Positions 1 through 15,062 of a stretch of DNA of 64,000 bases are shown here, piece after piece (position 1 is the stretch's first letter; each line of letters begins with the position of its first letter). The notes under the pieces were generated by a model that was given only the letters and a program-made list of their open reading frames with translations, was not told the origin of the DNA and made no database searches. A program made the translations under genes and the position numbers. This DNA is from Schmidtea polychroa (Eukaryota). Location: positions 29,452,001 to 29,516,000 of the forward strand of contig CM097885.1 in NCBI GenBank assembly GCA_044892525.1, in the 5' to 3' direction.

Positions 1-536
1 TCAGCAGCTCTTTTTCTAATACTATGTGTGGTGTTAATGTGTGTTCCATGAGACTCTAAATTTGAAATTCTTTTATTAAATGATGTAATCATCTCATTTA
101 TTATATTATATATTGCATTAAATTTAGTATTCATAATTTGTTTATCTTTAGAATTTAATATAGCAGTATTTAACTTTACAACTTGTTCAGTTAACAGACT
201 TTGTAACTTGTCAAATTTATCATTAAATCGTTGTTCGATATTATTAAGCTTTGATTCCATTGAATCAATTTTTGTTGTTAATGAACTTTCAATTCTTGTT
301 GTTGTTAAATCAGTATATTTTTTAACACCATCTACATATTTCTTATTAACTGCATCAGCTTCATCAGTTGGAAAAGATAATTCTTTTATCTTGTGTCCAT
401 TTAAAATTAAATCACCCTTCATTGAATCACCTCTTTCATTAATATATTTATTTTCTGTTAAAGTTAATATTTCTTCTGTATTAAACCCTGTTTTTATTGT
501 TCCACCACCTCTATTACATGGAATATAAGAACTCAT
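1..536 (-). CDS. Putative virion fibre/spike protein (runs off the window)
   Basis: Read by hand, absent from the ORF track: MSSYIPCNRGGG...GDSMKGDLILNGHKIKELSFPTDEADAVNKKYVD, then a coiled-coil-like region. The motif resembles trimeric tail-fibre/YadA-type repeats. Confidence 0.65.
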   Translation of the reverse strand, partial: MSSYIPCNRGGGTIKTGFNTEEILTLTENKYINERGDSMKGDLILNGHKIKELSFPTDEADAVNKKYVDGVKKYTDLTTTRIESSLTTKIDSMESKLNNIEQRFNDKFDKLQSLLTEQVVKLNTAILNSKDKQIMNTKFNAIYNIINEMITSFNKRISNLESHGTHINTTHSIRKRAA

Positions 537-560
537 TTATTAATAATTTAAAATGAATCT

Positions 561-1325
561 TCAAACCTGTTTCAAATGTAAATACATTGAAATCTCTTCT
601 CCATTAAAATCAATCAATTCTCCTTCTTGATTAAGAATTTTAAAATTAATATCCATTATATATTTTCTACATAAAGGTAAATAATTTGGAGGATTCATTC
701 TTTCAACTATTTTATATCCCATAGGAACTGTGTTTGAGGGAAAGGAATATAAAACATTTGTTTGTTTACCATTATTATAAGAACCTGTTATACAATCGCA
801 ATGAATATTTATTGTGTTTGTATTTATTATTTTTATAATATGTTCTGATGTTATTATTTTATCTTCTTTTATTGTTATATCCATAGGTTTAAATCCTAAA
901 ACTGTGTGAAAGAAACAATTATCTAAAAAACTAATTTTTATATTCTTCAAAGTCATTACACATTTTGAAGTTGGTATATCCATTTTAATTTTAATACCTT
1001 CATTTGTTTTTTTAGAAAGTATATCATTTAAATCTTTTATCTCATATGCCCCAGGTTCTATTGTTATAATTTCTGGTTTATGCCCATCACTAGTTTGAAT
1101 AGTAAATTTATTATTATCTTTAGTTATATTAAAAATAGTATTATAAGCACAAAACCATAATAGCCCCAATTCATAATTTAAATTTTGATCTAATTTAATT
1201 GAATCTTGAAAGTTTATAGTAAACTCTGATTCTTTTGAATTTATAGATAAAGTTCTTGAATATTTATCTGACATTATGTTTACCATTTTTTTTAAATTAT
1301 CTTCCGGAGGGTTGTGAAGCTCCAT
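561..1325 (-). CDS. Polinton minor capsid protein (penton, single jelly-roll)
   Basis: 254 aa with F..SIKL...YELGL, NITKDNNKF, I.PG.YEI..LN, INIHCD.I.GSY.NG, LYSF...P.GYKI.E and G.LIDFNGE motifs. The true start may be a downstream Met. Confidence 0.85.
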   Translation of the reverse strand: MELHNPPEDNLKKMVNIMSDKYSRTLSINSKESEFTINFQDSIKLDQNLNYELGLLWFCAYNTIFNITKDNNKFTIQTSDGHKPEIITIEPGAYEIKDLNDILSKKTNEGIKIKMDIPTSKCVMTLKNIKISFLDNCFFHTVLGFKPMDITIKEDKIITSEHIIKIINTNTINIHCDCITGSYNNGKQTNVLYSFPSNTVPMGYKIVERMNPPNYLPLCRKYIMDINFKILNQEGELIDFNGEEISMYLHLKQV

Positions 1326-1358
1326 TTCTTTAGTAGTAAATTCATATAGTAAAAATCC

Positions 1359-1823
1359 TTATAGTAGAGATTCTAGATCATTATAAATTTCTTGAATTAT
1401 AGATTCAAAATCCTGCGTATGCCCCTTTCCCTCTCCCTTATTCAATCTATACAAAACATATAAACTTAAAATACCACATATTTTAGTATTCAAAGGTTGA
1501 ACTTGTAAAGAGTTAAAAGTATAACCATTTGGGGAATCAATCGGAGAACCCCTCAAGAGATAATCTTCAACTTCTTTAGTAGGTTTAATCCCAAAAGAAT
1601 CAAAGTAGATAGATTTCTTATATATACAAACCCAATGAGATCCTTTTTCATTTGAATTTTGATAATTGATTATTATATTCAGGGGACTCTCCAGACTTGA
1701 TAATTCATCATTCAATAATATTTTAATTTTTAAATTTAAATAATTTGCATAATCTTTTAAATCAAAATTTGTTTTTGCATTTATTCCAAATGTTTTTAAA
1801 AAATCTAATATTGAAGGAGTCAT
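1359..1823 (-). CDS. Adenain-like cysteine protease
   Basis: GSHWVC (His), YFDSFG (Asp) and VQ..CG (Gln/Cys) catalytic motifs. Confidence 0.92.
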   Translation of the reverse strand: MTPSILDFLKTFGINAKTNFDLKDYANYLNLKIKILLNDELSSLESPLNIIINYQNSNEKGSHWVCIYKKSIYFDSFGIKPTKEVEDYLLRGSPIDSPNGYTFNSLQVQPLNTKICGILSLYVLYRLNKGEGKGHTQDFESIIQEIYNDLESLL

Positions 1824-1845
1824 TTTGTATTTTAAAACTTCGTAT

Positions 1846-2727
1846 TTATAACTTCGTATACTTATTAAATTTATCTTTTGAAATTATTCCTTGTTTTAAC
1901 AAATCTTTAGAAATCTTTAAAATATCAGAATCTAAATTATTATGTCCTGCTTTCCTTGCAGCTAATAGTTTTCTTAATTCAATAAAAAGATTGATGGGAT
2001 TTGGTTTACCACCTTCACTAATTAATCCCTCTCCCTCTGTAACAACATAACCCTTTTCATTTTTATTTAAATAATTCTTTAAATCTTGAATATATTTTGC
2101 TTTAGAACTAGCTCTTATTAATCTTATTAAATTTAAATATTTTTTAATTTCTTCAACATCATCTGAAGAATATCCACAAAGTAATCTATAAAAATCATCT
2201 GTAAATTCAAAGTCTAAATATTCATTATTATAAACATTTTGTGAATGAATACGTGATTTATTTTCTGAATTTGAATATAAAGTAAAGTTTTGTTTATTAA
2301 TTGTTATTATTTGATATCCTTCAGTATTAGTATTAAATGTGGGTCTAATTGAAGGAGGTAAATCATCTCTAATTTTAGGATCAACTTTAAGAGGTTTTGT
2401 TTTTAAAAACATTTCTTCTTCTTCCACATTAGAAATTCTTCTGCGTTTTCTTTGATTTCTTTCAGGATGGTTTTCACTGGATTCTTTTTCTTTATCCTGC
2501 CACTCTAGTTCTTTTATTTTTTGTTTTTTATCTTCTAACTCTTTAAATTTTGCTTGCTCATTGAAATCTTCCAACTCTTTTATAGCTTTAATTGTTGGAC
2601 CCTGTTGTTGTGTTATTACCTCATTTAATATTATAGATTCAGCATGTTGAGTTGTATCTTTTTTATTATATTTATCTTGTTCTGATTGTAATTTTTTTAA
2701 AAGTGCTAATCTTTCTTCATATACCAT
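1846..2727 (-). CDS. Conserved Polinton ORF of unknown function
   Basis: 293 aa. The C-terminal LFIELRKLLAARKAGHNN...ILKISKDLLKQGII resembles the L..L.LL.A...AG.N helix motif I recall from Maverick/adintovirus ORFs. A GEGL motif precedes it. Confidence 0.7.
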   Translation of the reverse strand: MVYEERLALLKKLQSEQDKYNKKDTTQHAESIILNEVITQQQGPTIKAIKELEDFNEQAKFKELEDKKQKIKELEWQDKEKESSENHPERNQRKRRRISNVEEEEMFLKTKPLKVDPKIRDDLPPSIRPTFNTNTEGYQIITINKQNFTLYSNSENKSRIHSQNVYNNEYLDFEFTDDFYRLLCGYSSDDVEEIKKYLNLIRLIRASSKAKYIQDLKNYLNKNEKGYVVTEGEGLISEGGKPNPINLFIELRKLLAARKAGHNNLDSDILKISKDLLKQGIISKDKFNKYTKL

Positions 2728-2749
2728 TTTAATGGTATCAAAAATGGTA

Positions 2750-3328
2750 TCATAGTTCGAAGGGCTTCAAGTATAATCCTTTACCATTTTTAGTTTTACA
2801 AAGGCATCCATTCTTTAAAGATTTACATATTTTTTTTAAATCTTCTTTATCTTTTGAAGATAAAGATTCAGATGTAGAAATTTGATTTTTTAAAAAATCA
2901 TTTAAACCTCTACCTTTATAAGGATCAAGATAGAGACCTTTGCCGTGAGACTTTTGCCGACTCCCCTCATATGGATTAAGATAGAGACCCTTTCCAACGG
3001 ACACTCCCCCTTTAGCTTGCCCTACCTTCTTCATTGAATCGATTTCAGTTTGTAGTTTTTCTTTTTCTAGGTCTGTCTTTTGAGATTCTTTAGCTTTTTG
3101 AACTGTAGTTGCAATTCCTCCAGCTATTCCAGCAGCACCTGATAAACCAGCAATGATTGCAGGTATTAAAGCAGCTAATGGAAGAATGCCACCTTCTTTA
3201 GCTTCGTGGAGCTTCGCTCTAACTTGTTCTTTTACATGTTTTCCAATAAAATATTTTTTACCATCAATTACTACTGATTTATTTTTATTTGAATTTATTA
3301 ATTCTTGCAAAGATTCTTCAGTTGTCAT
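2750..3328 (-). CDS. Putative core/pX-like structural precursor
   Basis: GGILPLAALIPAIIAGLSGAAGIAGG resembles the adenovirus pX GG(F/I)LP motif, with GKGLYL three times. Probable start is MTTEES at 3328 rather than 3391, which would overlap the ATPase. Confidence 0.7.
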   Translation of the reverse strand: MTTEESLQELINSNKNKSVVIDGKKYFIGKHVKEQVRAKLHEAKEGGILPLAALIPAIIAGLSGAAGIAGGIATTVQKAKESQKTDLEKEKLQTEIDSMKKVGQAKGGVSVGKGLYLNPYEGSRQKSHGKGLYLDPYKGRGLNDFLKNQISTSESLSSKDKEDLKKICKSLKNGCLCKTKNGKGLYLKPFEL

Positions 3329-3344
3329 TTTATAATAAATAAAA

Positions 3345-4136
3345 ATGGATACTTGGAAACCAATTTTAAATAGACATAAGAGTAAATTCAATAATAAAGT
3401 ATTTCCTGATAATTTTAGATTATTAATTGTTGGTTCTTCTGGATGTGGAAAGAATGTACTTGTTTTGAGAATGTTACTTGAAGATGATTTTTTAGATTAT
3501 AATAATTTAATCTTTTATTCTACAACCATAAATCAACCAGAATTACAACTTTTGAAATGTGGATTTGAAAATAAATTAACTAAAAAAGCAATAATTGATA
3601 TTTTTAAAAATCAACATAGGTGTCCTGAAGAAGTTTTTCAACCTTGTGATATGGTTGATTGGTATAAGGAAAAGATTTTAGAATCAGATATTAGTAATAA
3701 AAATGATTATATTTGTGAAGAAGGGCAGGAGGCAATTCAAGTTTTATTCTCTAATAAACCTGAAGATGTTTTACATTGTGATTTACTTCCTAAAGATAAA
3801 AAGAATCTAGTTATATTTGATGATGTTGTTAACATGAAAAATCAAGAGATTCAAAAGAGTTACTTTACACGAGGTCGACATAATAATTGTAATGTTATTT
3901 ATATATCTCAAACATATTATGCTTTAGATAAAAATTCAATAAGAAATAATTCCAATTGTTTTATATTTTTTAAATTAGATCGCCGTGATAAGAATATGAT
4001 TTATAATGATTTATTTTCAAATGTTGAACCTGATAAGAATATGTTTGATATGTTTGTTGATAATCATTGGAAAGAAAAATATAATTATATTTATTTGGAT
4101 AGAGAAGAAGCTGAAATATGGAAAAGTTTGTTTTAG
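3345..4136 (+). CDS. A32/FtsK-like DNA packaging ATPase
   Basis: Walker A GSSGCGKN, Walker B LVIFDD, FTRGRHNN arginine finger, YISQ and IRNNS motifs. Confidence 0.95.
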   Translation: MDTWKPILNRHKSKFNNKVFPDNFRLLIVGSSGCGKNVLVLRMLLEDDFLDYNNLIFYSTTINQPELQLLKCGFENKLTKKAIIDIFKNQHRCPEEVFQPCDMVDWYKEKILESDISNKNDYICEEGQEAIQVLFSNKPEDVLHCDLLPKDKKNLVIFDDVVNMKNQEIQKSYFTRGRHNNCNVIYISQTYYALDKNSIRNNSNCFIFFKLDRRDKNMIYNDLFSNVEPDKNMFDMFVDNHWKEKYNYIYLDREEAEIWKSLF

Positions 4137-4147
4137 GGCTTGTCGAC

Positions 4148-5551
4148 TTAAAAATCTGTTTTCTGTAGTTCATTATTATAAAATCTTCCTAATATTTTTT
4201 CATTATTTAAATCAAAGATGCTATATGTTATTGGAGTTGTATAATTTATTTTATTTATAATAAAAATTTCATTTGTCCATTTTGCTGTGAATCCTTTTTC
4301 AAATTTATTTTTATATTTAAATATTCTTACTCGGTCACCAATTTTAAACTTTGGTTTTTCAATAACATCATTTTCAATATTTACCACTTTAATGGTTTCA
4401 GGCTTCATGGAAGCATTTAAAGGTGTTAATTTTATAGAACTATGTACATCATTATTATATTCATTTACAATCTTTTGTAACAATTCATTGTTCCATTTTT
4501 GTTTTCCAATAGCAGTAAAATATTTCCACATTTTATTTTTTAATGTTCTATTTAATCTTTCAACTACGACTGCTTTTCCTTCGTTTTCTGTTGAATATAA
4601 TTTAATATCATTTTCATTTAAAAACTTTGTAAAAACTTTGTTATAAAATTCTGTTCCTTTATCACACCATAAATATTTTGGAATTCTTTGATATTCTTCA
4701 AATATATTTTCAAATGCTTCTGTAATAGAATATCCTGTTTTATTTTCTAAACACCTTGCAAAAGCAAATCTTGTATATAAATCTATTACAGTTAAAATTA
4801 TTTTATATTTTTCAGGGTCTGATGATTTGGGCATAAAGACTAAATCTGCAGACCATGTTTGATCTTTTTCATGTACTTGAACTTTTAAATATTTTTTATT
4901 TTTTCTAAATTCATGGTGTAATTCCTTTGCATATTTTATTTCTGATTCTGTTGGGGTTTGTAAACTAGTCTTGGATATATTCTCAAGGGATCTTTCAATG
5001 TCTGCTTGTTCGATAATCTTTTTATAATCAACATCTTTTGCTATTCTAGGAAGTCTTGCACCCATGGTGATCGGACTGTGTCCTAAGCCTATGAAAATCT
5101 TACCTTTCATTGCTAATTTAACTAGAGCTCTTTGAATCTTTTCTTGGGTTGATGGATTTTGGATACTATTTAAATCATGTATTAAATTCACATCTGCAAC
5201 ATGTCTATCTCTAAGATTTGTTGAATTGTATGCAATGTCATGTTTTAAAGCTGCTTGATCAATTCTATTTATTGGTTCTTCTCCTTGTTTGGGATTATTA
5301 TTTTTATCTAATCTAATATCTAGACGTGTTCCTGGTCCAGTATAGTTGTGTTTAAATAAATGTCTTTCACCTGGATATTTTTCTGTAGTAAAAGGTTTTA
5401 ATATTGAAGATGTTGTTTTTGAAGATTGCAAATCGCCTCCAGCTCGTGGAATTAGATCACCTCCTGTATGTTTTTTAGTTTTTAAATGACTTGCTTTGTG
5501 ATGTTTTGTAACTTGACAATTACAACTTTCACATCTCCAATAGAGAGACAT
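4148..5551 (-). CDS. Retroviral-type DDE integrase fused to an N-terminal C2H2 zinc finger and a parvovirus-VP1-like phospholipase A2 domain
   Basis: CESC..H..KKH zinc finger; NYTGPGT...DQAALKHDIAY...RHVAD PLA2; WSADL, LWCDKGTEF, VVERLNRTLK DDE core; FKIGDRVRI..FEKGFTAKWT C-terminal domain. Confidence 0.92.
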   Translation of the reverse strand: MSLYWRCESCNCQVTKHHKASHLKTKKHTGGDLIPRAGGDLQSSKTTSSILKPFTTEKYPGERHLFKHNYTGPGTRLDIRLDKNNNPKQGEEPINRIDQAALKHDIAYNSTNLRDRHVADVNLIHDLNSIQNPSTQEKIQRALVKLAMKGKIFIGLGHSPITMGARLPRIAKDVDYKKIIEQADIERSLENISKTSLQTPTESEIKYAKELHHEFRKNKKYLKVQVHEKDQTWSADLVFMPKSSDPEKYKIILTVIDLYTRFAFARCLENKTGYSITEAFENIFEEYQRIPKYLWCDKGTEFYNKVFTKFLNENDIKLYSTENEGKAVVVERLNRTLKNKMWKYFTAIGKQKWNNELLQKIVNEYNNDVHSSIKLTPLNASMKPETIKVVNIENDVIEKPKFKIGDRVRIFKYKNKFEKGFTAKWTNEIFIINKINYTTPITYSIFDLNNEKILGRFYNNELQKTDF

Positions 5552-5580
5552 TTTAAAATGTTAAAATATCAGGGATTATA

Positions 5581-6867
5581 TCAAGAATCTCCCCTAACAT
5601 TTTCGATTATTGAAATCTTTCCACCATATAATTTCATTTCTATTTTCTTTTCTTCTAATATTAATACTTTAGCTTTAAAATTAGAATCCTTTGTTACATG
5701 AAGTGTAACATCAACATTATTTATGGCTAGGCGATCATCTTGGTCTGAAACATTTATACAAAATATAGAATATAAATTTTTGAAATCTTCTAAACTTAAT
5801 TGCGGTTCAATTTTGAAATCATAACATGTTTCAATATAATTTAGATATGGGAATATGTTTTCATTATTTTCAATATTAAATTCCATTCTATTTATTGGAT
5901 AATAAGAACTATTTAATTGAATTTGGATTGTTTTTAAATTATCAACTCCAATCTTTTGAATAAACAAGTTGTTATTTTTTTGGAAAGATGAATCTACTTC
6001 TTTGAATTCAATCAAGATATATCTTGGTCGGTATGCTAAATTTGCTACCTTTATAGAATATGTTGAACCCTCTGTCATACTAAATTCACTACAGATTCTA
6101 TTTAAATAATTTACATTTATAGACTTGTTGGAATTTAATCTTTCAAGGAGTTTAATCTCAGAATGTGGGTTTAATGTCCATTCAGGTATATGTAATTCAA
6201 GTGTTGATAATTTTAATTTAGCTTTTGTATCTACAGCTCCATAGAACAATCTTTTATCACCTTCTACTCTATTACAGATGAATTCTATAAAAACATTATG
6301 AAGTATACGATTACAGTTTTGAAGGAATCCAAACAAGTGTTTTAATTCAAAATAACCTTCAAATTTTTTAGATTTATAAAGTTCAGCTCTTTTATGGTAA
6401 CCATGGTTTACATCTAAACCATCTTTATCTAAATCCCCTTTATTAACATCAGGAATCCAACCTGTTAATTCACCATATTCGTTTTTATAATCACAACCAG
6501 TCAAAATAAAATTTAACATTGTAGAATATACTCCCGGATGCAAAACAGTTTCAATTTCTGATGATCCTAGTTTTAATCTCATGTTGGAGAATAAATTTGG
6601 AAAGAAATTATTTTCTAGGGTTATATCTTTGTTTGCTTCAATTTCTAATTCGATTTTATAATATAATTTGGCATTACAAATATCTATAGGGTTTGATGTT
6701 TGAAGAGATTGAAAAACTATATCACCCCTACGATTTAAGTTTGCAATAGATCCTGAAGTTGGAGAGATTTTAAGTACATCATTTTTCTTGATTTCACGAG
6801 TAAATTCTTTATTATAATCAAGATTTAATTTATTTTTTTCTTGAATTTTAAGATTTATATTATTCAT
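5581..6867 (-). CDS. Polinton major capsid protein (double jelly-roll)
   Basis: 428 aa with NNFFPNLFSNMRLKLG..EIE, LKHLFGF, RPRYILIEF, LNS.YYP and DFKNLYSIFCINVSDQ motifs, in a capsid-gene context. Confidence 0.88.
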   Translation of the reverse strand: MNNINLKIQEKNKLNLDYNKEFTREIKKNDVLKISPTSGSIANLNRRGDIVFQSLQTSNPIDICNAKLYYKIELEIEANKDITLENNFFPNLFSNMRLKLGSSEIETVLHPGVYSTMLNFILTGCDYKNEYGELTGWIPDVNKGDLDKDGLDVNHGYHKRAELYKSKKFEGYFELKHLFGFLQNCNRILHNVFIEFICNRVEGDKRLFYGAVDTKAKLKLSTLELHIPEWTLNPHSEIKLLERLNSNKSINVNYLNRICSEFSMTEGSTYSIKVANLAYRPRYILIEFKEVDSSFQKNNNLFIQKIGVDNLKTIQIQLNSSYYPINRMEFNIENNENIFPYLNYIETCYDFKIEPQLSLEDFKNLYSIFCINVSDQDDRLAINNVDVTLHVTKDSNFKAKVLILEEKKIEMKLYGGKISIIENVRGDS

Positions 6868-6923
6868 TTTTATATATTAAAATTTACACACACACAATAG
6901 GATTAATTAAATATATTTTGTAA

Positions 6924-6997
6924 GCCATTATAGCGGAGTGGGAATAGGCTTCAATTTTATCACCGGGAGTACCGGGTTCAATTTTCGATTTTGGTCA
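6924..6997 (+). ncRNA. tRNA-like Pol III unit 1 (degenerate)
   Basis: A box TAGCGGAGTGG at 6931, B-box-like GGTTCAATT at 6975, T7 run after. Internal T4 runs may terminate transcription early. Confidence 0.45.
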
Positions 6998-7166
6998 ATT
7001 TTTTTCGATATTTTTTTTCAACGGAATCTGATTCAGCGTACTGATTTTAGTATATATTTAAATTTTCAGATAGATCTAAGTGGTAGTTGTCGAGAAAATG
7101 AATAATTAATTATCAATTTCATCAATAAATAGTCACACATTAACAACTTATTTTATATTGAGTATA

Positions 7167-7239
7167 GCTCTAATAGCTTAGTGGTAATAGCACTCGACTG
7201 CATTGCCAATACCAATGGGTTCAAATCCCATTTCGGTCA
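7167..7239 (+). ncRNA. tRNA-like Pol III unit 2 (Cys GCA-like loop, anticodon stem unpaired)
   Basis: A box TAGCTTAGTGG at 7174, perfect T arm ATGGG-TTCAAAT-CCCAT, CT-GCA-TT at the anticodon-loop position, T7 terminator. Confidence 0.65.
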
Positions 7240-7425
7240 TTTTTTTCCAAATTTTTTTTTAACGAAATATTGATCAGCATACTCGATTTAGTACTTGTAC
7301 AAATTTTTAATGAGATTGGTCAACGGCAACTTTTGGAAATTTAAGATCAAAAACGTTTTAACTACCAAAAAATTAATATATCCAATAAAAAAATATTTAT
7401 AAAAAAGGATGAGTTAAAAGAAAGA

Positions 7426-7659
7426 ATGAGAAATGAATTGAATGAAGTTAAACATAAGAGAATGAAAAGAAGAGAAGAAGAACCATTAGAATACATCAAA
7501 GAGTTGATGGTAGATAATGAAAAGTATCGACATTTTTATATGAAGGCTGTAGATGTTGCTGATATAAGATTGAAGAAAATGAAACAATTACAGGAAAGAG
7601 TTAAAGAACTTGAATCGATTATTTATAGTCTAAAAAATGACAAAAAATCCAAACCTTGA
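7426..7659 (+). CDS. Small charged coiled-coil protein of the Polinton
   Basis: 77-aa ORF rich in K/E/R with heptad-like periodicity. Its stop codon overlaps tRNA-like unit 3. Confidence 0.5.
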   Translation: MRNELNEVKHKRMKRREEEPLEYIKELMVDNEKYRHFYMKAVDVADIRLKKMKQLQERVKELESIIYSLKNDKKSKP

Positions 7660-7725
7660 TGGCGCAGTGGGCTAGACTGACACAGTGGTTCAAAATGCTA
7701 GCGGTTCAAATCACATCTGAGGTTA
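7653..7725 (+). ncRNA. tRNA-like Pol III unit 3
   Basis: A box TGGCGCAGTGG at 7660, B box GGTTCAAATC at 7703, terminal stem AACCTTGATG/CATCTGAGGTT, T9 terminator. Confidence 0.6.
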
Positions 7726-7871
7726 GTTTTTTTTTCAACATAAAATAATATTAAAAATTTGAAAATAATATTGAAAATAGTGTGGGTATCTTATATTTAT
7801 AAAGTACTTGTATATTTTATTTTATTTTATTTTTTTATAAATTAAAAATTAAAAAAATGACAAAAATTCAA

Positions 7872-7945
7872 ACCTTGATGGCGCAGTGGGAATAGACTGG
7901 CACAGTGGTTCAAATGGATAGTGGTTCAAATCACATCTGAGGTTA
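7872..7945 (+). ncRNA. tRNA-like Pol III unit 4 (duplicate of unit 3)
   Basis: A box at 7879, B box at 7923, same terminal stem, T8 terminator. Confidence 0.6.
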
Positions 7946-8429
7946 GTTTTTTTTCAACATAAAATAATATTAAAAATTTGAAAATAATATTGAAAATAGT
8001 GTGGGTATCTTATATTTATAAAGTACTTGTAAATTTTATTTTATTTATTTTATTTTTTTTTTTTTTTTTATTAATTAATTATTTTTTAAACATAAATATG
8101 AAAAAAAAAATATTGAAACGGGTGATGGTGGCGCACCGGTAATTATCGCCACCTGTCTTTCGAACACCACCGGATCGATCCCGGTAATGTGCACATTTAT
8201 TTCTCAGTTGTTTTCGGACCTCTTTCGAATTCGCTTTCGAATTCATTTGTACTTTCGAGCAGCACACTTAAAACGCCGATGAAATTGTATTCGAGCGAGA
8301 AGCGAATAATAAGGTGTGCTGCTATTATCGAATTGATTCTGATGTATGAGTCTGGCCAGCTTGTATATTGGAAGAGATTTGATAAACGAAAGAGGTTGAA
8401 TATAAAAAAAAATGATCCGGATCAAAAAA

Positions 8430-8492
8430 AAAACTGTTGAGAGGACAGTGAAAAAAAAAAAAAAAAAACCACTGTCCTCTCAGAGCAGTTTT
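8430..8492. repeat. Subterminal hairpin of the Polinton
   Basis: AAAACTGTTGAGAGGACAGTG, then an A-run loop, then CACTGTCCTCTCAGAGCAGTTTT. Confidence 0.85.
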
Positions 8493-8626
8493 ACTATTTC
8501 ATAAAATTTTTTATTTTTAAAACTTTCAAAACCTTAAGGTGATCAGGCGACCTAGATCATTATGAATTAGGTAATCTGATATTCTTATAACATTAAATCC
8601 TTATAACATTAAATCCTTAAGACCAA

Positions 8627-8870
8627 GTAGTGAGGAATCTATGCACCCCGTTACCTTTTCTCGGAATTACTAATCTATAAATACATCTATTCCGAACTTT
8701 TTTACTTTTAAGGGAAGAAATTAAGGGTTAATGGCAATAGGGGACAAAGTTTAAAAGTTAAAAAAAGTGAAGAATATGGGGTAAAAAAGCATATAAATGT
8801 GGAAAATATGGGTCAATAGCGCTGTTTTTTTTGAGGGTGGGGGTGCTGGGGTGCATAGATTCCTCACTAC
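8627..8870. mobile_element. ~245-bp MITE-like element with 23-bp TIRs
   Basis: GTAGTGAGGAATCTATGCACCCC (8627-8649) and its exact reverse complement (8848-8870). No TSD seen. Confidence 0.75.
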
Positions 8871-11125
8871 CTTTGATATTACTCTTCTTCAGTCAAAGGA
8901 TCAAAATATAAGAAAAACATTCTTGAATGCTGACCGCATAATTCCTCAATCACTTCCAATCGACATCGAAAACAAAAACTTTCCATTTCATATCTTTAAT
9001 AAAACGCTTCAGAATGGAGAAAAGGCATCTCGGGATTGGATTTATTATAGTGAGTCGACAAAATCTATTTACTGTGCTTGCTGCTTATTTGCAAATGAAT
9101 TAGCAAGTAATTTCACAAAAGGTTGGAGCCGTGATAAAGGTTGGCGAAAATTAAAAGACAAAGTTCCTGCACATAAAAATTCAAATTCTCATTTTAAGAA
9201 TTATGTCAATTGGAAGAATTCTGTAGCTGCTGAGAAGAATGAAACACAAGTGGAATCATTGTTGATGATAAATATTCACGATGAAACAGAAAAATGGAAG
9301 AAAATATTGACACGCATACTGGATGTTATTTTATTTCTTGCTGAACGTTGACTTGCATTTTTTGGAGATTCGTTTAAACTTGGAGATTCGTCGAATGGAA
9401 ATGTTTTAGGAATAATCGAGCTATTAAGCAAGTATGATGTGATTCTTAGCGAACATTTGACTAAAGTAAAAAATTCTCAAAAGGAAGGAAAGAAACTTCA
9501 AGTTCATTATCTTTCTAATGATTTACAAAATGAGTTTATACAAATATGCGGAGATATGGTTGAGAAAAAAAATTCTATCGGAAATAAGAAATGCAAAATA
9601 CTATTCCATAATTGCTGACAGCATTCCTGACAGCTCCCACAGTGAACAGTTTTCGATAGACATACGTTATGATGACCTGCAGTCAAATTCATTGATCCAG
9701 GAAAGATTTATTTGTTTTGACGAGTTTTACGGAAAAACTGGAAAACAAATTGCCATCAATATCCAAAAACTTCTTGACACCCGAGGTTTGATTATGAAAA
9801 ATTGTGTGGCTGGAAGTTTTGACAACGCAAGTTCAATGTCAGGAATAAATATTGGCGTTCAAGCTTGGCTTAAAGAGGCAAATCCTGAATTTATGTTCTC
9901 TCCTTGTTGCAATCATACACTTAATTTGGTAGGAAATGATGCAACATTATGCTGTACGAAATCAAACGACTATTTCGTGAAATTTCAAACGCTCTTCAAT
10001 TTTTTCTCTTCATTTACATCTCACTGGGCTATATTAAAGAAGCACTGCAACAAGTCGCTTACGAATGTATCAAAAACCAGACGGGATGCTCGTTTTAATG
10101 CCGCAAAACCAATCGTGTCTTCTTTGAATCTGATAAATTTGGCCCTTAAAGAAGTTGATTCGAATCTAAATCAATCTGCAGAATCCAAATATACATGCAA
10201 GTCGCTTTTAAAATTCACATCTCGATATGAAACGGTGGTCATGAATTCTATTTGGCTCCCTATACTGACAGCAGCACAGAACACAAATTTATTGTTAGAA
10301 GCAAGAGATGCAACTTTGGACGTCGAGACCGAGAACATAGATGCACTAATTAATTCAATAAAATTAATGCGATGGGAAAAGGTGATGAGTGATAGTAAGG
10401 AATATGCTGAAAAATTCTCCATTCACGCATCATTTGAAATTAAAAGAAAGTTTATTGATGAAGCAGCTGTTGAGTTACATTATCAACAAATATTCAATAA
10501 GATCATTTCAGTTTTACAAAAATCATTACAAACTCGCTTTTTAAGAATGATTGAAATTTGTGATAATTTTAAATTCCTGTGGACCTTCAATAGCATTGAT
10601 GTAGACATATTGCAAAATCAGTGCGACAAGATTAAAATTAAATTTTCGGATGACATTTCAACAGACCTGTATGATGAAATGATATTTTTTAAAAGCATTT
10701 ACGCAACCAACTTCAAATCATCAAAGCCAAAAGAAGTGCTTAAATCTATTATTGAAATGAATTTGGAGTCAATTTTTCCAAAGCTTGTAGTTGTATTAAG
10801 ATTATTTTTGGCAATCCCAGTTTCTGTAGCCGAGTCTGAACGTACGTTTTTTGCTCAAAAACGTATTAAGAATTTCTTGAGATCTACAATGGCACAAGAG
10901 CGGCTAAATGGATTAGCAATGCTGCATATTAATAACGATATTGCAAGAAACCTAAATTTTAGTGAAATAATTGATAAATTTGCAATTTCAAAAGCCCGTA
11001 AATCATTAATTTAATAAAATTTGTTTTTATATTGTGTTGTCGCTAACTATATATATTTTTTAATTATTAAAAAGGGGCCCCAAAAAAATTTGACTCAGGG
11101 CCCGCACTCTCTCTCCTAGGCCCTG
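8871..11125 (+). mobile_element. hAT transposon (ZMYM1/TTF-type transposase), 5'-truncated and pseudogenised
   Basis: RDWIYYSES..IYCACC, YYSIIAD, SFDNASSMSG, C.NHTLNL and PVSVAESERTF..LRSTMAQERLNGLAML motifs. In-frame TGA at 9349-9351, then a frameshift. The 3' end GGCCCTG at 11125 fits a CAGGGCC TIR. Confidence 0.9.
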
Positions 11126-12701: not shown

Positions 12702-15062
12702 AGTAACATTTTCATTAAAAATCATTAAAACTAAAAAGCTATTTTCAAATATATTTAATATAAAATCTGAATATTTAAACAATATATCAATTTAAATCTC
12801 GTCACTCGCCCCTTCTTTAAGAACTGTGAAAACTCTTTCAGCCATTCAACTCTTCTGCATCTTTTCCCATCTGGATATTCCAGTTCAAATTGATGTTCCA
12901 TTGGAAAACCAAGAATCTTTACAGGACCTTCGAACAAATTACCATGTTTTGATCTCTTATGTGGATCCATTTTTATTAGAACTCTTTGACCCACCTCAAA
13001 ATGCCGATGACTTTTCTTATCTGTATCTCTTGATCTCACTTTATCTGCCGCTACCATAAAATTATTCTATGCTGTCAATAATACTTGTTCTCGGTTAAGA
13101 TCTATGAATGAATTCTTTCCATGTATATTAACCTTTCTTCCCAATAGTATTTCCATTGGCAAAAATCCCGTATAATTCTGTTTTTTTGAGTTTAGAGAAT
13201 ATTCAATTTTTAGCATAATTTTGTCCCAACACCCTCCAGTTTGACCATCACTCAAAAATGTCACGATCATATCACTAACTGTTCGTATTACCCGTTCTGC
13301 TAAACCATTAGACTTATGATCATATGGCGAAGTAAATAACCATTCGATGTTAAAATTGTCAACTAACCTTTTGATTTGACTTCCCTCGAAAACCTTACCT
13401 CCATCCGAAACCATGTAAGCTGGTTTACCGAATTTGTATATCCAATTGTGTAAAAGTACACGATATACAGTCTTTTCATCTTGGTTCTGAGTAGGCGTTA
13501 AATTAACAATCTTGCTGAACTGATCAATTATTATTAATGTTTCCTTCATATGAGCAATATCGATTACAATTTGTTCCATGGAATTCATTATTACCCTAGG
13601 AATTAAATATTCAACTGTTTTACTTGTTAAAACTTTCCTTCTCATGCATATATCACATTTTTATAATATCTCGTATATCGGTTACAATGTGTATCCAAAA
13701 GAAATAATCGTTCATATAATTTGTTGTTTTCTTAACTCCTAAATGACAGAGTTCTTTGTGCATATGCTGTACAACTTATAACGCTATCTTCTGCGGAATT
13801 ATTATCTTCTACTTATCATCATTTACTCTTAATAACATATTGTCTTTAACCAATATCTGATGCAATCTTTTGAAATAAGGTAAATCCCGAATCAAGTGAA
13901 GTATCTCGGGACTCGGGTTTAGCACATATTTCTTTATTATAGACAACAAATTATCTGCTTCCTTATTCTCAATATATAAATGTATGTTTAAATTACTTAA
14001 AGTAATCACGTTTAAAAATCTTATTCAGCTCTTCTCGAGTTTTCCTTCTTCGTGTTCGGTTTGAAATTTTGAGCAATAACTTAACAATATCCTCGATAGT
14101 CCATCAGTGTTGTTATGATATTCACCCTTTCTATATTTTAAATCAAAATCATAACCTACCAACTCACTTAACTATGTTTGGAATTGTGGATCTTTTGGTT
14201 TCGAAGTTGATTTTAAGAACTTTAAAGCCCTATGATCCGTGCATATATCAAACTTTTTTCCATATAAATAATGCCGAAAATATAGGACGTACTCGTATAT
14301 TGCTAATAGTTCTTTTTTAGTTACACAGTATCCTTTTTCGTGAGCACTAAAAAGTCTTGAACCATATGCTATGACTTTTTCACAACCATTTTGAACTTGA
14401 CTTAGAACAGCACCAATTCCACTAAAACACGCATCAGTATCCAAAATAAATTAATCGACCTTATTTGGAAACGCCAAGATTGGTGCACTCGATAATATCT
14501 GTTTAAGTTTTCGGAAACTTTCTTCACACTTGTCATTCCATTTAATATCTTTTCATGTCCCTTTGTAGCCTCATACAACGGTTTGGCTATTTCAGCAAAA
14601 TTTATCAGACTTATGTCTTCGATATTTTGCAAAAAACATTTGAATTTTACATATTTTAAAATAAATCAACTTTTTACCTCTTGATCTGAGACCGGAGTCT
14701 TTTGTGGTTTCTTAAAAGCCATTCATAACTGTTTTGCGTCTCCATGTAATAAAAAATCGAATGCTGCTCCTAAATTGAGCGAATTTATCGTCACAAATTC
14801 TTCAATAGATACAAGTCAGTATTTTGCATTTTCTTTTCCTCCAAAAATCTTCTTTATCACTGCATAAATTGAATCTTGAATATTTTTTGGCAAAGACTCC
14901 TCAATTTCTGCCTTTGCTGTAATCTCGCCAGAGCTGCGATTTCGGCGTGGTCGCCAGTAACCTTTTCATTAAAAATCATTAAAACTAACACGCTATTTTC
15001 AAATATATATTTATTATAAAATCTGAATATTTAAACAATATATCAATTTAAATATCGTCACT
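12702..15062 (-). mobile_element. Internally deleted Ty3/Gypsy LTR retrotransposon with ~105-bp LTRs
   Basis: LTRs at 12702-12806 and 14956-15062 with AGT..ACT ends; 5-bp TSD ATTAT; PBS TGGCGACCACG; PPT AAAGAAGGGG; RNase H (DTDAC..GIGAVL, ELLAI, TDH) and integrase fragments. Confidence 0.92.
14945..14956 (-). promoter_or_regulatory. Primer binding site (probably tRNA-Arg)
   Basis: The minus strand reads TGGCGACCACGC, overlapping the 5' LTR end by one base. Confidence 0.7.

Follow-up and report, generated by a model that had tools for sequence, protein, structure and literature searches.

The window analyzed here is a stretch of 64,000 nucleotides from Schmidtea polychroa (assembly GCA_044892525.1, contig CM097885.1, positions 29,452,001 to 29,516,000). 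Near its left edge lies a 467-aa open reading frame (ORF), which a Polinton/adintovirus integrated at this place carries as its integrase gene. The features of this element are as follows, in window coordinates:

1..536, minus strand: fibre-like ORF with a coiled coil, truncated at the window edge
561..1325, minus strand: probable minor capsid protein (penton), judged from homologs that adjoin the MCP in related loci
1359..1823, minus strand: Ulp1/adenain-like cysteine protease; GSHW, FDSFG and ICG are its His, Asp and Cys motifs
1846..2727, minus strand: 293-aa element ORF with homologs in related loci L003, L031, L032, L055 and L058
2750..3328, minus strand: pX-like core protein in its own ORF, with seven GG/GxG motifs (Adeno_PX, weak, E 0.04)
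3345..4136, plus strand: A32-like packaging ATPase (PF04665, E 9.7e-9)
4148..5551, minus strand: finger-PLA2-integrase ORF, 467 aa in one frame (sequence, Pfam and AlphaFold)
5581..6867, minus strand: double jelly-roll capsid gene (PF21738, E 1.7e-23)
8626..8874, no strand: probable right end of the element, with inverted arms and an AGTAGT lead; a hAT gene resumes at 8875

Several features that mark Polintoviricetes are found here: an rve integrase with a DDE triad, the PF21738 and PF04665 genes, and a Ulp1/adenain-like protease. The protease resembles protease ORFs of related loci and aligns with the Peptidase_C5-like region of protein P0128 (pairwise E 2e-4); neither it nor the ORF at 561-1325 has a direct Pfam match. 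The protein-primed PolB of Polintons is not visible because the element runs off the left edge of the window; a fusion-type relative (L060) carries PF03175. ORFs of ~1280 aa occupy the PolB position in two other loci (L070:7965-11801 and L041:39-3884) and, unlike that of L060, have no Pfam match.

At the right end, perfect inverted arms of 23 nt (8627-8649/8848-8870) lie 198 nt apart, and the preceding bases make the first arm read AGTAGT; AGT is the end motif of Polintons (PMC8097293). Polinton terminal inverted repeats have AGT/ACT ends and a 6-bp target duplication. Of the present element, one end only is inside the window, and because matching 6-bp flanks are absent, the structure at 8626-8871 is possibly a fold-back terminal repeat. 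The integrated Polinton appears to have interrupted a hAT element. The adjoining hAT (ZMYM1-like) transposase gene (8875-11014) lacks the initial ~115 codons on the side that borders the Polinton and changes frame near 9560, and its homology begins abruptly at 8875, which corresponds to residue 114-118 of about 830. An animal host is one criterion for adintoviruses, and the best named matches of the flanking hAT are animal (41-44%), with plant matches next.

Domains of the 467-aa protein

The original prediction described one uninterrupted frame joining a C2H2 finger, a phospholipase A2 (PLA2) with intact calcium loop and catalytic residues, and a DDE integrase without a C-terminal chromodomain. 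The frame is uninterrupted, as described, over 4148-5551 on the minus strand, and AlphaFold resolves the protein into two confident domains, with low-confidence stretches at residues 29-48 and 156-177. Its parts, all on the minus strand, are:

5468..5533: C2H2-like zinc finger, residues 7-28 (motif and AlphaFold; no Pfam match)
5459..5464: second GG copy, non-conserved
5435..5440: Gly-Gly, residues 38-39, before the PLA2, a candidate protease site (conserved in homologs, disordered in the model)
5081..5434: parvovirus-type PLA2 module, residues 40-157 (Pfam, fold and homolog conservation)
5330..5344, 5237..5242 and 5192..5194: Ca loop, His-Asp pair and Asp120 of the PLA2
5081..5089: G-L-G, residues 155-157, closing the PLA2 module, a candidate protease site (homolog conservation)
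4937..5080: variable linker, residues 158-205, in frame here; relatives change frame at this place
4151..4936: retrovirus-like integrase, D236-D297-E331, without chromodomain (Pfam and structure match)

The PLA2 matches PF08398 over residues 64-145 (E 3.8e-9; 37.1 bits against a cut-off of 23.9), and Y70-T-G-P-G74, D98, H104-D105, Y108 and D120 are all present. It is modeled as a domain folded on its own (pLDDT 85). Structure comparison gave rice PLA2 as the top PDB match, with a middling score (Z 7.5, rmsd 3.5, 86 residues aligned; the remaining listed PDB rows align fewer), and densovirus and parvovirus VP1 PLA2s were matched in BFVD. The Ca-binding loop and His-Asp catalytic residues that characterize parvovirus-type PLA2s are thus in place. 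It shares Pfam family, catalytic residues and fold with the PLA2 of parvovirus VP1u but is tethered to an integrase rather than to a capsid protein.

The integrase has an rve match at residues 227-319 (E 4.9e-12), the triad D236/D297/E331 and a structural match to the foamy-virus intasome (Z 21.6). The chromodomain is indeed absent, the protein stopping 5 residues past the last conserved integrase motif. The finger has the motif C7-x2-C10-x11-H22-x5-H28 and no Pfam match, but is modeled as a hairpin plus helix (pLDDT 69-81 in the first two blocks). The two GG-DL motifs and one GLG that had been pointed out are also there, the doubling being local, since GG-DLQ occurs only once in each of the sisters P0001 and P0272. 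Both glycine sites flanking the PLA2 lie in low-pLDDT linkers. No slippery heptamer was found in phase within residues 158-205, and the gene is in frame. Among the 12 listed of 59 indels from public-run contigs, a single one falls in the ORF and adds 3 nt in frame at 4829, and one low-depth contig from public runs skips 4371-6516.

Alpha adintoviruses (Starrett et al. 2021, PMC8502044) share with the window the capsid, ATPase and protease module, and their PLA2X protein is likewise a parvovirus-type PLA2 ending in K-x-x-[FIL]-G-x-G. There, a pX-like segment follows the PLA2 and the integrase, which has a chromodomain, is encoded by a gene of its own, whereas in the window the pX is separate (2750-3328) and the integrase follows the PLA2. 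Two adintovirus hallmarks, an integrase with a C-terminal chromodomain and a PLA2 with a C-terminal pX-like domain, are therefore lacking here.

Distribution of the fusion and its split relatives

The original prediction took the PLA2-like genes of adintoviruses to be usually separate and named beforehand, as a refuting outcome, that the fusion is common in the clade. This is what we found: among the best 120 of 2382 homologs, 114 contain both enzymes. Nor is the fusion new to annotation, as two proteins (Adinto6405 and Adinto15303) are already labeled "PLA2-Integrase" in a published supplement (Buck et al. 2024 preprint, PMC11071296). Both have the same in-frame ORF with GG before and GxG after the PLA2, differing from the window protein in being without the C2H2 finger. 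The fusion is therefore neither rare nor unannotated, and the window ORF, taken alone, is unexceptional within its large clade. That clade (support 0.997) has 56 tips, comprising 47 fused proteins, the window, one split locus and 7 incomplete or integrase-only proteins; the sisters P0001 (88% identity) and P0272 (same 90% cluster) are full length.

The absence of a chromodomain and the presence of a finger are clade traits. None of the 56 tips has a tail of chromodomain length, and a long C-terminal tail occurs in 16 of the 114 fused homologs. The N-terminal module is variable; it is a finger in 12 of 114, and DUF5679 stands at that place in another clade. Catalytic residues are largely kept: the PLA2 His, Asp, Tyr and Asp are present in 111/113 and the DDE triad in 113/114; the Ca loop deviates from [FYW]xGPG in 24/108 fused homologs. 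In three fusions (L096, L100 and P0145), additional sequence, up to about 240 aa long, separates the two domains. The fusion is not obligatory in the family, because 123 of 148 more distant representatives are integrase-only (23 are PLA2 fusions) and the integrase is free, with a Met of its own, in six loci. On a midpoint-rooted FastTree of 136 tips, which leaves out partial integrases, retains about a third of the redundant proteins and has weak deep nodes, we counted 14 changes of fusion state against a shuffled mean of 36. A single-protein scan of viral contigs gave no match.

Stops or frameshifts between the domains of sister copies had likewise been named as evidence against the fusion. 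Such breaks do occur in relatives, yet they do not refute it, because their pattern looks like a programmed -1 frameshift. We compared 105 loci, 26 of them viral and 79 metagenomic (the latter from the best 80 of 427 matches, with a query that favors PLA2-linked forms). PLA2 and integrase lie in overlapping frames in 25 loci, and 39 ORFs hold both in frame. The integrase is at -1 relative to the PLA2 in 23 of the 25 split loci and at +1 in 2. In 24 of the 25, the first ATG of the integrase frame lies downstream of the first catalytic Asp, so that AUG initiation cannot give active enzyme. Internal initiation at Met163 was set aside as a general route, the linker Met being present in only 21 of 114 fused homologs and absent in P0001.

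The junctions of the split loci resemble recoding sites. Within the interval from GxG to the PLA2 stop (4-55 nt), an in-phase X XXY YYZ heptamer is present in 21 of the 23 -1 loci, with 0.5 expected from integrase windows of the same length, and in 3 of 39 in-frame linkers. The heptamer is A AAA AAC in 15 of the 23, whereas this sequence accounts for 16 of the A AAA AAN sites in a comparable background of 86; it is the slip site of MMTV, HTLV-I, EIAV and astroviruses (PMC3835772). Nine loci have in common a 12-bp stem after a 5-nt spacer, with 97% of cells paired against 30-68% in slid registers. Two-sided changes appear in 3 of its pairs, a covariation score reached by 21 of 500 shuffles and not significant alone, in a test limited by the nine loci being related to one another and chosen for having the stem. 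A tenth locus (L090), ended by a contig edge, carries the same heptamer-stem cassette. Folds downstream of the heptamer are strong in L035 and L076 and weak or missing in about 10 of 21 loci. A DNA pattern scan for the heptamer-stem combination gave no match. Split forms cluster in two clades, both almost wholly -1, and the window's own clade includes a split locus, L035, that has both A AAA AAC and a stem. These features suggest that many relatives make the fusion by -1 ribosomal frameshifting. Adinto13074, annotated in PMC11071296 as a PLA2X plus an integrase starting past the first catalytic Asp, may be read as a frameshift in the same way.

We considered whether the split forms could instead result from errors of assembly or sequencing, or from decay at A runs, with the in-frame fusion as the sole functional form. 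The linker is rich in lysine, several heptamer loci have runs of 8-11 A at which slippage or assembly error is possible, and in one subclade (L034, L039, L046, L048, L062) the in-frame, +1 and -1 arrangements all occur, around long A runs. Against this stand the 23:2 bias towards -1, heptamers in phase with a preference for AAC, a stem conserved at fixed spacing, and the existence of two clades that are almost wholly -1. The identical split recurs in two separate contigs (L069 and L071), and the split loci have diverged to a median pairwise identity of 53%. Breaks also fall at the domain junction in 25 cases and inside the PLA2 or integrase cores in 5. We therefore regard this explanation as very improbable.

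Glycine motifs and protease-integrase fusions

The original prediction supposed that the integrase may enter virions as a polyprotein with the PLA2 and be released by adenain, and it pointed to glycine motifs flanking the PLA2; this idea fares unevenly. Comparative support comes from the homologs: in fused proteins with residues at the relevant columns, GG is found upstream of the PLA2 in 85/101 and GxG downstream in 93/112; the integrase cores give a background of 0.4% of 25-aa windows. The adenain consensus, (M/I/L)xGG|x or (M/I/L)xGx|G with M, I or L needed at P4 (PMC4246237), is missed at all three sites of the window protein, where P4 is H, R and F; homologs mostly have Lys, with the glycines conserved. 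Because the window protein and most homologs miss this consensus, the Polinton protease would need a specificity of its own. An amphipathic helix after GG, as in pVI, was also sought and proved unremarkable (the window scores 0.26 and 54 homologs have a median of 0.45, with the 90th percentile of the background at 0.55). At L084:80, the GxG position is taken by an in-frame stop (KLG*GIEW) in place of the Trp or other residue of close relatives; decay and readthrough are both possible.

A second set of fusions bears on the meaning of these motifs. Using the protease part of a protease-integrase fusion as query, we obtained 215 proteins of 255-814 aa, and in 112 of the 120 matches listed the capsid protease continues into an integrase N-terminus, a proportion that does not give the fused share of all proteases because the search was length-limited. 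GxG lies within 25 residues of the integrase N-terminus in 108 of these 112 fusions, compared with 1.5% of integrase-core windows. It was found after the last helix in 0 of 20 stand-alone proteases read by eye. In one protein (P0459), protease, PLA2 and integrase follow one another as protease-GNG-PLA2-GLG-integrase, with GxG at both joints. PLA2X and protease are also combined: in frame in L002:340-1371, and overlapping over long A runs in L003:1013-1992 (-1) and L005:2718-3699 (+1). The protease of these loci has its own Met, and PLA2X-Adenain products appear in the supplement of Buck et al. (PMC11071296).

We then asked whether the motifs need be cleavage sites. The protein might remain an uncut fusion in which PLA2, finger and integrase act together, with the glycines serving as flexible hinges or end-caps. 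The departure from the P4 rule suits such a reading, as does the shortening of the linker after GxG to about 3-4 residues in some homologs. The GxG motif also belongs to the PLA2 module in every layout seen: K-x-x-[FIL]-G-x-G closes the PLA2 in stand-alone PLA2X proteins too, ahead of a basic linker and a GG-led pX segment, so that GxG could be a structural end-cap. Against it, GxG occurs at protease-integrase junctions that have no PLA2 and is absent from stand-alone protease ends, and the pX-like protein and the C-terminus of the capsid protein are both sites where GG/GxG motifs cluster. On balance, it appears unlikely that the fusion stays uncut.

The other main rival of a cleaved precursor is that the arrangement achieves translational coupling only, on a compact polycistronic transcript, the integrase being released in the cell and acting before packaging without becoming a virion component. 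Coupling alone explains why the integrase frame of split loci needs an upstream start, and related elements have free integrase genes. Against it, the partners that recur are PLA2 and protease, each predicted to be a virion protein (PMC4642659, PMC8502044), and no fusion to the ATPase or to other element genes was found among the 268 proteins screened. We consider mere coupling quite unlikely.

Proposed precursor mechanism and its relation to known systems

The layout [Zn module]-GG-[PLA2]-GxG-[integrase], with all catalytic residues intact, is read directly from sequence. Based on this layout and on the comparisons above, we propose that in a widespread lineage the integrase would be translated as the C-terminal tail of a virion-protein precursor, which would be packaged via its PLA2/core-protein part. 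The element's cysteine protease would cut at the glycine motifs during maturation; on entry, the freed PLA2 would breach the endosome and the freed integrase would arrive together with the genome, so that integration would need no new gene expression. PLA2-aided endosomal escape has already been suggested by analogy with parvoviruses (PMC4642659, PMC8502044). In the window's clade, where the precursor is made in frame, PLA2 and integrase would be produced 1:1. In sister clades, a -1 ribosomal frameshift would yield much PLA2 and little PLA2-integrase, and in other lineages the integrase would be attached to the protease instead. Precursor synthesis, packaging, cleavage and dosing by frame are deduced from the gene arrangement, and to this explanation as a whole we assign a probability of about 0.6.

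The recurrent fusions and the frameshift pattern suggest that virus particles take up the integrase and that it is released by cleavage inside them. More broadly, we lean slightly towards the view that many Polintons are Gag-Pol-like, their integrase existing only as the tail of a virion protein, dosed by -1 frameshifting in some clades, packaged, and freed at GxG. The virion-protein partner would then be the PLA2 or the maturation protease, sometimes both, and the window gene would be the constitutive in-frame form. As in retroviral Gag-Pro-Pol of MMTV, HTLV-I and EIAV (PMC3835772), the relatives have A AAA AAC, a 5-8 nt spacer and, in part of the loci, downstream structure, and their enzyme would be the tail of a structural precursor from which the viral protease would release it. 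The differences are that the relatives are dsDNA jelly-roll viruses, that the partner is a PLA2 or a cysteine protease and not Gag, and that the window gene itself is without a frameshift.

Adenovirus pVI offers another comparison, being a membrane-active precursor bracketed by glycine motifs from which cleavage at IVGL|G frees the basic pVIc (PMC4246237). The split PLA2 ORFs of relatives similarly end in GLG and a short basic tail. Unlike pVI, they fall outside the P4 rule and the PLA2 is an enzyme rather than a lytic helix; we claim no homology. Mavirus is a virus that packages its integrase.

The separate parts and the in-frame fusion are already known, and the expression strategy is the point of interest. 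In the literature searched (PMC8502044, PMC3671162, PMC5803895, PMC11131425, PMC8097293, PMC11071296, PMC4642659, PMC11296320, PMC11161782, PMC10318531 and 2026 bioRxiv preprints, with supplements covered in part, so that an earlier report is possible), we found no description of a PLA2-integrase frameshift or polyprotein, of the protease-integrase parallel or of the GxG junction rule. In the portions covered of Buck et al. (PMC11071296), the fusion is only a label and penton and hexon-adenain are the only products for which -1 frameshifting is put forward; recoding in adintoviruses is therefore not a new idea. Polinton virions have not been observed (PMC8097293; bioRxiv 10.64898/2026.06.19.733378), and the three apparent routes (in-frame PLA2-integrase, frameshifted PLA2-integrase and protease-integrase) provide indirect evidence that integrase travels in the particle. 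The fusions further offer the Polinton protease a set of candidate substrates and a candidate GG/GxG specificity, and the frameshift cassette lends itself to a standard reporter assay. Current annotation treats the integrases of these clades as truncated or dead, since the first catalytic Asp precedes their first ATG, and intact elements may consequently be undercounted.

Several minor features lie in and beside the element. Between the capsid gene and the element end, 6931-8180 (plus strand) holds five tRNA-like units starting at 6931, 7174, 7660, 7879 and 8129. Each has A-box and B-box-like motifs, and long T runs follow four of them. One unit (7167-7239, 32.4 bits) scores above the Rfam tRNA threshold; ARAGORN called no tRNA over the units. 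A pattern tuned on these units was absent from the rest of the window, from 100 shuffles and from the 105 related loci. They may be virus-encoded Pol III RNAs, for which the adenovirus VA RNAs, themselves Pol III RNAs, offer a comparison, or SINE-like inserts. A long hairpin with an A-rich loop (-30 kcal/mol) lies near the element end at 8428-8494. Very many contigs from two public runs map onto the element at 1-8700 (105,579 in X1), which suggests many variant copies, such depth not being a copy number. Farther along the window are a decayed LTR retrotransposon at 12702-15062, with an rve ORF at 13067-13645 and 107-nt direct repeats at 12702 and 14956, and an inverted duplication of about 1.5 kb (43592-45336/46794-48704) with 94% identity.
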